Virus record (IMG/VR): IMGVR_UViG_3300023259_000001
Location: 1-64,000 of that record
Direction: 5' to 3' (one strand)
Source: a virus
Taxonomy: Duplodnaviria; Caudoviricetes
DNA length: 64,000 bases
Under the pieces are notes generated by a model. The model did not search any database. It was not told the DNA's origin and saw nothing but the letters and a program-made list of their open reading frames with translations. How positions within the stretch are numbered: the first letter of the stretch is position 1; the number at the start of each line of letters is the position of its first letter. Shown here one piece after another: positions 35,021 to 37,110 of the stretch. A program made the translations under genes and the position numbers.

Positions 35021-35245
35021 ATGACACTCTCACGGCTTGTAACCTACTACTACCACGACAGAATGATGTTACCCAAGCTGCCCATGAGATTCTTTGGATG
35101 CAGGCACAAACGTACGACTTGGCCCCAGAGGCCCCGCGCCAAGGGGCCGGCACAGTCCTCGGGCGGGGAAGTGGTAATGTGTTCGGATTGCGGCCGGAGA
35201 TTCAATTACGACTGGGAAAAGATGCAGATGGGGGAAGAGATATGA
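35021..35245 (+). CDS. Small Zn-ribbon protein of a type recalled from Acidobacteriota genomes
   Basis: FFGCRHKRTTWP..VMCSDCGRRFNYDWEKM. Confidence 0.6.
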   Translation: MTLSRLVTYYYHDRMMLPKLPMRFFGCRHKRTTWPQRPRAKGPAQSSGGEVVMCSDCGRRFNYDWEKMQMGEEI

Positions 35246-36765
35246 GTACTTCAATTGAATGGACGGATGTTACGTGGAATCCGACGCGGGGGTGTTCGAG
35301 GGTGAGTGAGGGGTGTAGAAACTGCTACGCGGAGCGAATAGCTGCGCGCTTCAGCGGCTCATGGAAAGGCGAGCAGGCACTGCGGTTCGAGCCGGGTCCG
35401 TTTGGCTCATTCGCGGTGAGGACCGATTCAGGCCCGCGATGGACCGGCCACGTTGAACTGATCGAAGACAAGCTGCAGGAGCCGCTGCACTGGAAGCGGC
35501 CCCGGCGCGTCTTCGTCAACTCGATGAGCGACCTATTTCATGAGTCACTGCCGTTTGAGGATGTTGCCCTGGTCTACGCCGTGATGTACAGCGCCCACGG
35601 CGAGCACCACACGTATCAAATTCTGACAAAGCGTCCCGCAAGACGGCTTGCGTTCTTCGCGTGGCTGGCGAAAGAGTCGCATCGGCACCATTGTTCGATA
35701 CCGGATCTGCTGTCTCACGAATTCGCCGCAACGCTGCCACCGGCCGCTTACTTCTCGGACTGGCCGCATCCACATATCTGGGAAGGAGTCAGCGTCGAAG
35801 ACCAATTCACCGCGGCCGCCCGCATTTCCCTGCTGCTTCAGACGCCAGCAGCACTGCGGTTTGTGTCGTATGAGCCGGCGCTGGGCCCGGTGAACTTTAG
35901 CCGACATTTTGGAGAAGGCAATGAGGCCAACGCAAAACGAGGAAGTGGTGTACCAAGCGGTCGTGGACGAGGAGCTCAGGATCGACGGCCAAGGCAGGAT
36001 ATGGAGGGTGTCGGCGCGTCGGGGGAACCGATGGGCCAACACGACGAGCTTAATCCGCTGTCATCCGCGGCGTGCGGAAGTCAAGGTAACCAACGGATAC
36101 CTCCAGGTCAGGGTTATGTGGAACAACAAACGGGTGGCCGCGCTAGCGCACCGTCTCGTGTGGCTGCACTTTTACGGACCAATCCCTCCGGATTTGACGG
36201 TGAACCACAGGAACGGCAAGACGAACGACAACGATCCAGGGAACCTCGAACTGGCGACGTACTCGTACCAGGTCATTCACTCGTGGCGGGTATTGAAACG
36301 GAGGTGGCAAAGCGGAGAGACGAATCATCGGGCGACGCTTACGGAATCGGCGGTCCTGGAGATTCGCCGCAGGAGGCTTGCCGGCGAGAAACTCAAGTCG
36401 ATAGCCACTACGTTCGCGGTGTCGGATCGGGAAATATCGAAAGTGGCCAGGAGAGATCGTTGGGCATTTCTTGGGTGATCTGCGGCGGCGAATCAGGCCC
36501 CGGCGCCCGCCCGTTCGATCTGGCCTGGGCGCGCAACGCACGCGATCAATGCGCGGCGGCCGGAACGGCGTTCTTTATGAAGCAAGTGGGAGCGCACCCC
36601 ATTCTGTCAGTGACCGATCTCCATAAATTGCTGGCCGAGTTGCCGGATACCGACAGAACGCTGGAGGATAACTGCTACCGCCTGAAGCTCCGCGACCGCA
36701 AAGGCGGATCAATGGAAGAATGGCCAGAGGATATCCGCGTGCGCCAGTTCCCGGAGGCGCGCTGA
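35242..36765 (+). CDS. DUF5131 (Gp37/Gp68) radical-SAM-like protein with an insertion of about 185 aa
   Basis: SIEWTDVTWNPTRGCSRVSEGCRNCYAE, FVNSMSDLFH, LTKRP, SYEPALGP, WVICGGESGPGARP, FFMKQ. Confidence 0.9.
   Translation: MSTSIEWTDVTWNPTRGCSRVSEGCRNCYAERIAARFSGSWKGEQALRFEPGPFGSFAVRTDSGPRWTGHVELIEDKLQEPLHWKRPRRVFVNSMSDLFHESLPFEDVALVYAVMYSAHGEHHTYQILTKRPARRLAFFAWLAKESHRHHCSIPDLLSHEFAATLPPAAYFSDWPHPHIWEGVSVEDQFTAAARISLLLQTPAALRFVSYEPALGPVNFSRHFGEGNEANAKRGSGVPSGRGRGAQDRRPRQDMEGVGASGEPMGQHDELNPLSSAACGSQGNQRIPPGQGYVEQQTGGRASAPSRVAALLRTNPSGFDGEPQERQDERQRSREPRTGDVLVPGHSLVAGIETEVAKRRDESSGDAYGIGGPGDSPQEACRRETQVDSHYVRGVGSGNIESGQERSLGISWVICGGESGPGARPFDLAWARNARDQCAAAGTAFFMKQVGAHPILSVTDLHKLLAELPDTDRTLEDNCYRLKLRDRKGGSMEEWPEDIRVRQFPEAR
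35921..36478 (+). CDS. HNH homing endonuclease nested in the +1 frame inside DUF5131
   Basis: SD GGAG; AHRLVWLHFYGPIPPDLTVNHRNGKTNDNDPGNLE; C-terminal HTH. Confidence 0.85.
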   Translation: MRPTQNEEVVYQAVVDEELRIDGQGRIWRVSARRGNRWANTTSLIRCHPRRAEVKVTNGYLQVRVMWNNKRVAALAHRLVWLHFYGPIPPDLTVNHRNGKTNDNDPGNLELATYSYQVIHSWRVLKRRWQSGETNHRATLTESAVLEIRRRRLAGEKLKSIATTFAVSDREISKVARRDRWAFLG

Positions 36766-36956
36766 TGCCAATAGCGTATCTCGCCGATGAACCAGCGATT
36801 GCGCACGAGTGTATCCGCTGCCACGTGGCGTTTCGTTCGAAATGCCGCAACGTGAAGCGCTGCCCAACCTGCCGCAAGTTGAGGAAGGTCGAGGCGCAGG
36901 TGCCCTACTGTGAACGCAAGGCGCGCAGGGATAGACGGGGAATGGGAGTAAGGTAA
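36765..36956 (+). CDS. Small Zn-finger protein
   Basis: CIRC..CPTC. Confidence 0.55.
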   Translation: MPIAYLADEPAIAHECIRCHVAFRSKCRNVKRCPTCRKLRKVEAQVPYCERKARRDRRGMGVR

Positions 36957-36976
36957 AAGGTCTGTACAGACCTTTT
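36955..36976. repeat. 22-bp perfect palindrome identical to 11779-11800
   Basis: aaaaggtctgtacagacctttt overlapping the last early stop codon. Confidence 0.95.
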
Positions 36977-37011
36977 GTGCTTAGGCTCGCCGTGTTTGGT
37001 GGCGAAAGGTG

Positions 37012-37041
37012 AGGATAGCGGGTTGCTGAGGGGAATGTCAA
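37012..37041 (-). promoter_or_regulatory. Putative leftward promoter TTGACA-N18-TATCCT
   Basis: tgtcaa at 37036-37041, aggata at 37012-37017. Confidence 0.4.
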
Positions 37042-37058
37042 GTAGCAGGATAAAGATT

Positions 37059-37110
37059 ATTGTTTGGTGCCGCGCCCGTCGCATCCGCGCCGGATCGCTG
37101 GATCCAGATT
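37059..37110 (+). repeat. 52-bp inverted repeat, left copy (partner 53616-53667)
   Basis: attgtttggtgccgcgcccgtcgcatccgcgccggatcgctggatccagatt; 50/52 identical to the reverse complement of 53616-53667. Confidence 0.95.

Follow-up and report, generated by a model that had tools for sequence, protein, structure and literature searches.

Homing endonucleases are taught as persisting inside genes only by way of introns or inteins, or else between genes. HNH homing endonucleases of the I-HmuI type are classically intron-encoded in phages, and free-standing homing endonucleases can also split genes, an example being mobE in nrdA of Aeromonas phage Aeh1. A further design was described by Arsenault, Gosselin, and Gogarten in 2025 (PMC11855218; earlier PMC9957025), namely the "ShiLan domain," a hidden out-of-frame HNH in the mycobacteriophage DNA methylase gp65. 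From sequence and predicted structure these authors argue that the insert is neither an intron nor an intein and is read through (PMC11855218). Their paper covers a handful of near-identical mycobacteriophage sequences, contains no selection test, and mentions neither Gp37/Gp68 nor DUF5131 (PMC11855218). We have analyzed an insert of this design in a DUF5131 gene of the phage record IMGVR_UViG_3300023259_000001, where a complete HNH gene lies within, and out of frame with, an uninterrupted host gene. We give a probability of roughly 0.7 to the explanation that the insert is a mobile, hidden out-of-frame HNH cassette of the ShiLan type, which occupies a surface loop of a DUF5131 radical-SAM-like enzyme and is read through without splicing. 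The design is already published, and the DUF5131 family is a new one that far exceeds in size any other known family of hidden out-of-frame HNH elements. It supplies a selection test for a third route of persistence, translation straight through an element encoded in another frame.

The window analyzed here (64,000 nucleotides (nt)) covers the first 64 kb of an IMG/VR phage record that is 87.8 kb long and has direct terminal repeats, and the sequencing runs that contain window DNA are peat and permafrost metagenomes. Positions refer to the window unless a locus is named.

A nested HNH gene in an uninterrupted DUF5131 gene

The host gene (35242..36765, + strand) was assigned to the DUF5131 or Gp37-Gp68 family, a radical SAM subgroup, from its translation and Pfam PF07505. 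It is an uninterrupted open reading frame (ORF) of 507 codons with an ATG at 35242 and a stop codon at 36763-36765, giving a protein of 507 residues. PF07505 matches this protein with 241.9 bits (gathering cut-off 28.9; E 9e-72) in two stretches flanking the insert, residues 3-217 and the C-terminal part. The 5' part of the host gene (35242..35892, + strand; residues 1-217), delimited by alignment with insert-free homologues and by AlphaFold2, ends in SYEPALGPV. The 3' part (36472..36765, + strand; residues 411-507), delimited by the second Pfam stretch and by AlphaFold2, begins with WVICGGESGPGARP. Between SYEPALGPV217 and W411VICGGESG lie 193 residues that have no DUF5131 family match. Read in the host frame, this insert (35893..36471, + strand; residues 218-410; ∼579 nt) is a stop-free polar loop, a few residues of which at each end may be native loop.

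The insert is occupied by a gene for an HNH homing endonuclease of 185 amino acids (35921..36478, + strand), which is read in the +1 frame with respect to the host ((35921-35242) mod 3 = 1). A Shine-Dalgarno (SD)-like sequence read directly from the DNA, GGAGAAGG (35911..35918, + strand), places a GGAG core 6 nt upstream of the HNH ATG. The HNH stop codon, TGA at 36476-36478, consists of bases 2-3 of V412 (GTG, 36475-36477) and base 1 of I413 (ATC, 36478-36480) and so falls within the W-V-I-C-G-G-E-S-G motif of the host. Upstream, a TGA at 35891-35893, 28 nt ahead of the ATG, closes the HNH frame, and therefore the nuclease gene fills essentially the whole insert: it starts ∼28 nt in, and only these ∼28 nt of the insert lie outside its ORF. 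The original prediction, made from the DNA letters alone, had given the same coordinates and frames for both genes, with an SD for the HNH gene, and ORF calling, Pfam, and direct reading agree on them. It had also put the insert between EPALGPV and WVICGGESG with the HNH stop overlapping the WVI codons, as is the case.

The nested protein matches Pfam HNH_3 with 48.6 bits (curated cut-off 24.8; E 6e-13) and PHROG 59, "HNH endonuclease," with an E of 3.5e-24. In a profile search it also matches I-HmuI (1u3e) over the HNH core (E 1.2e-5). Residues H77, N95, H96, N104, N108, and H120 are invariant in a five-protein alignment of nested HNH sequences. The gene is present as a single copy in the phage genome. 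A promoter scan found no sigma-70-like promoter near the HNH start in the window, and we make no claim of an internal promoter. An SD-like motif is present at the corresponding position in 22 of 57 nested relatives. A +1 frameshift fusing DUF5131 to HNH was rejected, since the TGA at 35891-35893 blocks the HNH frame and the ATG is conserved in relatives.

Many of the nested relatives that have no SD carry a conserved GG-TATAAT-CCAGTCC-ATG, which the host reads as G-Y-N-P-V/I-H/Y (for example L003:1942-1960, L004:3076-3094, L060, and L061). A strict TA[TC]A[AG]T hexamer stands exactly 7 nt before the HNH ATG in 13 of 58 nested representatives. This spacing is the geometry of a -10 box yielding a leaderless mRNA; the window copy is of the SD type and has no hexamer.

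The host protein shows no sign of decay in the window. Its CX6CX2C motif (C18, C25, and C28) is conserved in the alignment with insert-free homologues, and it retains 83 of the 84 columns that are ≥95% conserved in those homologues, the Cys triad and GGESG included. Retention across all nested alleles is 79%, a figure that is uninterpretable because the insert-free reference set is biased to the clade of the window, and for this reason we use only the window's own 83/84. Comparison with HNH-free alleles, which the original prediction had proposed as a check, was carried out with these homologues; they reach 70% identity to the host protein (P0002). An AlphaFold2 model built with 98 homologues folds both host halves at a predicted local distance difference test (pLDDT) score of ∼90 or above. 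The 5' part scores mostly >85 and has a strand (E205-210) just ahead of the insert. The 3' part scores 92-97, has a strand (E411-415) immediately past the insert, and keeps the invariant residues G415, G419, and R423. With both halves folding confidently and 83/84 columns kept, the host looks functional, and the long protein is predicted to be active.

DUF5131 is a listed subgroup of the radical SAM superfamily in RadicalSAM.org (PMC9477430). A Foldseek search of the host model against the PDB found nothing at E ≤ 0.001 and only weak radical-SAM matches (spore photoproduct lyase), which are in loose agreement with the SFLD radical-SAM assignment. A radical-SAM-type fold may tolerate a large disordered insertion.

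Stop codons and coding constraint in the two frames

Across the insert in the window the host frame contains no stop codons, the third forward frame contains 9, and the reverse frames contain 3-8. Three shuffles that preserve the HNH protein or its codons served as null tests: synonymous codons within the HNH gene, resampling from the codon usage of the phage, and codon order. They lead to an expectation of 5.6-5.9 host-frame stops, and zero stops occurred in 0.03-0.2% of trials (P 0.0003-0.002). The stop-free host frame in the window exceeds chance.

Relatives were fetched from viral, metagenome, and genome collections by HNH alignment or HNH peptides alone. Because such a search ignores the host frame, the ascertainment is unbiased with respect to stops in it. 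Every locus was classed by custom DUF5131 and HNH profiles, and the HNH sequences were clustered at 90% amino acid identity. Of the resulting 85 clusters, 63 lie within a DUF5131 ORF whose frame is open, 1 is nested but has a broken host frame, 18 are not nested, and 3 could not be classed. In the 63 nested open clusters (62 tested) the HNH is always in the +1 frame, and 0 host-frame stops are observed against a mean of 6.1 expected in each; the other forward frame of nested clusters contains 4-23 stops. The broken cluster (L094) has a truncated HNH and one stop, so that the host frame is open in 63 of 64 nested lineages.

In the clusters that are not nested, the same (-1) frame contains 0-25 stops, with a median of 5. 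The two zero-stop cases among them are L022, which lies inside a divergent DUF5131-like ORF, and one cut contig. Two of the unclassifiable clusters have a contig end inside the HNH, and their stops were not counted. The third, L012, has DUF5131 on one side only and is a free-standing copy just upstream of the DUF5131 gene. It branches within a nested clade, has 8 stops in the same frame, and is a natural control for lifted constraint. The tree was made by a quick search and was used only for this placement and for the second-site clade described below. The open host frame that the original prediction had noted in one gene has been kept by selection across 63 diverged lineages, and the comparative evidence for this selection against stops, which comes from sequence, is strong.

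Among 1485 pairs of nested elements, differences are most frequent at position 3, less so at position 1, and least frequent at position 2 of the HNH frame in every divergence bin, and third-position differences between relatives amount to 46-66%. Translated in the HNH frame, nested relatives share a mean amino acid identity of 48%, against 23% when translated in the host frame. Because substitutions follow the HNH codon positions and the identities stand at 48% versus 23%, this comparison identifies the nuclease as a protein under purifying selection and the host-frame reading as varying freely save for stops. The older coding frame is that of HNH, and the loop read from the host frame is a by-product that is merely kept open. 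In dozens of lineages diverged to 40-50% identity, the nuclease evolves as a protein and the host frame evolves freely but stop-free, and free-standing cousins gain several stops.

These results divide the central proposal of the original prediction, that stop-free overprinting may be a third way for a homing endonuclease to be harmless. The mechanism is supported by 63 open lineages and a constrained HNH frame. The novelty is not, ShiLan having been published in 2025 (PMC11855218), and the direction implied by "overprinting" is wrong, the HNH frame being the older of the two.

The host-frame loop has no match in Pfam or PHROG even at E 10. Its pLDDT is <50 over residues ∼238-403, between strands 205-210 and 411-415, and it is predicted to be disordered. 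As the earlier description of a polar loop implied, 70% of its residues are polar or disorder-prone. The loop polarity of 0.70 compares with 0.65 in its own synonymous permutations (paired Wilcoxon, 1e-10). We discounted polarity as the object of a separate selection, since avoiding T at host codon position 1 to dodge stops gives polarity by itself.

A search with the host protein retrieved four long forms at 42-49% identity (P0001, P0004, P0017, and P0019) amid mostly insert-free proteins of 300-360 amino acids. The contigs of all four carry a homologous HNH ORF at the same site in the +1 frame, with the host frame open. The insert is carried by only ∼4 of the 120 nearest host homologues. A scan of viral contigs with a single HNH protein found nothing, and the alignment-based scans succeeded. 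Gene callers give the long host ORF only, so that nested nucleases are invisible in annotations and "DUF5131" lengths are inflated.

Among the loci in bacterial genomes, 9 of 10 are also nested and open. The arrangement occurs in cultured actinomycetes, namely Spirillospora sp. NPDC048911 (L116), Spongiactinospora sp. TRM90649 (L118), and Nonomuraea sp. NPDC049141 (L119), where the copies presumably sit in prophages. Such prophage-like copies are experimentally tractable material. The cultured phages of INPHARED contain only distant relatives of the window HNH, at <40% identity.

Several nested HNH genes are short, with 125-138 amino acids, and have no counterpart of the C-terminal helix-turn-helix-like region of the 185-residue form (L006:4632-5045, L075, L094, and L120-L123). 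Of these loci, only L094 has a stop in the host frame. In L004, a 176-residue ORF with a Pfam DUF5131 match (L004:1946-2476) lies directly upstream of the nested gene and is a second, truncated or divergent copy.

Mobility and a second target site

In a set of 31 nested loci that are complete and non-redundant, host-exon identity does not correlate with HNH identity (Spearman 0.07). Some pairs of loci have 72-76% HNH identity yet 37-43% exon identity, and the window and its closest nested relative, L002, have HNH sequences that are 66% identical and host proteins that are ∼46-49% identical. Because HNH and host-exon identities are uncorrelated, the sequences point to horizontal movement of the HNH between diverged hosts. 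In L002 the true DUF5131 C-terminus is found in the +1 frame after a frameshift (L002:5238-5531) and is identical to that of the insert-free P0006, which suggests a mosaic (co-conversion-like) allele or an assembly error.

DUF5131 has a second target site, at profile positions ∼146/152, just before WPLPNVWLG(VS), where the element is again in the +1 frame. This site is occupied by a single HNH clade with a support of 100 (L018, L020, L023, L027, L098, L101, and L105). Whichever site it occupies, the element terminates with a stop codon supplied by the host, whose codons there encode a conserved hydrophobic strand (pattern xTR Rxx). The ATG of second-site elements lies inside TATAATG, which the host reads as Y-N.

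One host gene, L020:1262-3046 (IMGVR_UViG_3300038829_000109; the same in L090), contains two nested HNH genes, one occupying site 2 (1512-2033) and the other site 1 (2202-2750). Each lies in the +1 frame, and neither brings a stop into the host frame. In this gene a TGA at 1259-1261 replaces the conserved Gly codon of PRWTG; the gene may be a pseudogene, or the TGA may be an error of sequencing or a codon that is read through.

Free-standing HNH relatives are found directly upstream or downstream of complete DUF5131 genes (L012, L024, L028-L032, and L109-L111). It is plausible that these DUF5131-adjacent copies are a precursor or an escape form of the nested state, and adjacency is the arrangement expected of intergenic homing endonucleases that target a neighbor.

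A small Cys-rich ORF (CxxC...CxxC, zinc-ribbon-like) follows the host gene of the window at 36766-36956 (+ strand). Because its ATG overlaps the DUF5131 stop codon (TGATG, 36763-36767), translational coupling of the two genes is probable.

Read-through, its rivals, and known systems

The original prediction saw no intron or intein signature, and searches of Rfam, Pfam, and PHROG found none in the window or in relatives. Were the HNH ORF carried by a self-splicing intron, of group I or another type, the mRNA would be spliced and the open host frame would be irrelevant. HNH enzymes like I-HmuI, the closest solved relative, have this habit in phages, and an undescribed ribozyme would lie beyond the reach of computation. 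However, Rfam gave no intron match for the window (E ≤ 10) or for 11 relatives (E ≤ 1). A conserved group I core (P3-P9) was likewise not found by Rfam, and with all but ∼28 nt of the insert taken by an HNH ORF that runs into host codons, there is no space for one. The third-position differences of 46-66% are hard to square with a conserved RNA fold, and an intron gives no reason for stop avoidance in 63 lineages. A 1.3-kb contig from a peat metatranscriptome is identical to 35798-37097 and spans both junctions unspliced; DNA contamination is possible, and we take the contig as a hint of unspliced mRNA. No joint that skips the insert was found in that run. Contigs of the soil DNA run X7 do join 35897 to 36472/36484, with joint sides of 29-48 nt at 85% likeness, and are read only as insert-free relatives rather than as an empty allele of the window phage. 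Uncovered stretches in runs X5 (35708-35791), X6, and X7 were left uninterpreted. An intron is the least likely of the explanations considered here. Nearly as improbable is removal or neutralization of the loop after translation, by an unrecognized intein-like or protease-dependent process that leaves a mature enzyme without the loop. As with an intein, the host frame must be translated through, and there are inteins whose endonuclease genes lie out of frame or antisense (bioRxiv 10.1101/2025.01.02.630785). Against this, Pfam detects no Hint or intein domain in the host-frame loop even at E 10, and in the window and relatives the insert neither begins with a conserved Cys/Ser nor ends with His-Asn, the junction residues being variable. 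Because the loop is 23% identical between relatives and predicted to be disordered, it can hold no conserved splicing domain.

The remaining rivals concern the two proteins rather than their processing. The host gene might be inactivated and dispensable, its frame being open because of polarity (on a coupled downstream gene or on HNH expression) or because the insertion is recent. DUF5131 is patchy among phages and so may be non-essential, the small ORF beginning at the host stop implies downstream coupling, and hosts are damaged in L002 (frameshift), L020 (TGA), and L094 (stop). Such damage is confined to just 3 of >60 lineages, however, and the window host keeps its 83/84 conserved columns with the Cys triad and GGESG. 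A recent insertion fails to explain HNH sequences diverged to ∼40-50% identity with all 63 lineages open. We consider inactivation unlikely. Still less likely is that the HNH is not selfish but has been domesticated as a DUF5131 partner, such as a nuclease working with a DNA-modifying radical-SAM enzyme, co-encoded to save space. The free-standing relatives that adjoin DUF5131 show that nesting is not the only arrangement in which the two are linked. However, lying next to the gene it targets is also an established hallmark of a free-standing homing endonuclease, as in T4-like phages. The comparison of Pacc40 with Tiff81/Sashimi likewise involves a free-standing nuclease adjoining an uninvaded target gene (PMC11855218). 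Moreover, the insert is present in ∼4 of the 120 closest DUF5131 homologues, and the HNH and host phylogenies are uncoupled.

The preferred explanation remains a mobile HNH cassette that is read through. The cassette would be essentially a bare HNH gene, which brings an SD and an ATG, the latter ∼28 nt into the insert, and takes its stop from the host codons for the hydrophobic strand (W)VI before GGESG; it would be removed neither at the RNA nor at the protein level. Ribosomes from 35242 would read through in the host frame, adding ∼190 polar and disordered residues as a loop that separates two core β-strands, and ribosomes starting internally at 35921 would produce the endonuclease. The host protein is probably made with this floppy loop in place and without splicing, since selection keeps its frame clear of stops. 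Selection on the phage would purge variants with host-frame stops, the absence of stops being the sole constraint on the host frame and the low hydrophobicity a side effect. During co-infection, DUF5131 alleles without the insert are presumably cut by the endonuclease beside the EPALGP / WVIxGGESG codons, and repair would copy the cassette in.

Several points weigh against this explanation. We infer from sequence that the 507-residue protein is synthesized and active and that the HNH is translated and cuts. A loop of 190 residues in a radical-SAM barrel could still impair the enzyme, and hosts do show decay in the 3' part of L002 (frameshift), at codon ∼60 of L020 (TGA), and in L094 (one stop). 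Selection for an open frame could also have a basis other than host-protein function, for instance escape from transcriptional polarity on genes further downstream. An undescribed ribozyme outside Rfam is conceivable, and contigs drop rare (spliced) variants, which limits what the missing joint in the metatranscriptome run can say.

A broader claim, held with somewhat less confidence than the reading of the window itself, is that stop-free read-through is a general, selection-maintained third lifestyle of homing endonucleases. DUF5131 would be its largest and oldest known radiation, with 63+ lineages, two sites, double occupancy, and several phyla of phages and prophages; a bare nuclease would borrow the host stop, and the host would work with a disordered loop of ∼190 residues. 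The family exhibits a minimal element, which has no ribozyme, no splicing domain, and not even a stop codon of its own.

Among known systems, mobE in nrdA of phage Aeh1 is likewise an HNH-type gene inside a coding gene without an intron or intein. There the host is split into two separately translated pieces, whereas the DUF5131 gene is a single uninterrupted ORF. I-HmuI of Bacillus phage SPO1 (PDB 1u3e), the solved structure closest to the nested protein, resides in a group I intron, and its similarity is confined to the catalytic core. Inteins with out-of-frame or antisense endonucleases (bioRxiv 10.1101/2025.01.02.630785) also have a host frame that is read through and a nuclease from another frame, but keep a splicing domain that removes the insert, and none was found in the DUF5131 loop. 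The insertion in Pacc40 gp60 (PMC11855218, section 3.6) is a second, unrelated hidden nuclease ORF in another methylase. It resembles the DUF5131 system in having free-standing relatives just upstream of the uninvaded gene, as in L012 and L024, and differs in its host gene and in its nuclease, the HNH assignment of which is less certain.

The closest match is to ShiLan. In both cases the insert lies in a phage enzyme gene beside conserved residues, stops are absent from the host frame, and an HNH of ∼190 amino acids in another frame fills the insert and stops at its extreme 3' end. Both are devoid of intron and intein signatures, have a loop predicted to lie clear of the enzyme core, and show a patchy, mobile distribution. 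The host is a methylase in ShiLan and DUF5131 here; the nuclease is a zinc-finger-flanked HNH there and of the HNH_3 / I-HmuI type here. The ShiLan gene lies in the "third" frame and starts with GTG without a ribosome-binding site, whereas the window gene lies in the +1 frame and starts with ATG preceded by an SD. Specific to the DUF5131 family are a stop codon made of host codons and a range of 63+ lineages diverged to ∼40% identity, at two sites, in phages and prophages of several phyla. It is because the family spans so many diverged lineages that a statistical test of stop avoidance is possible.

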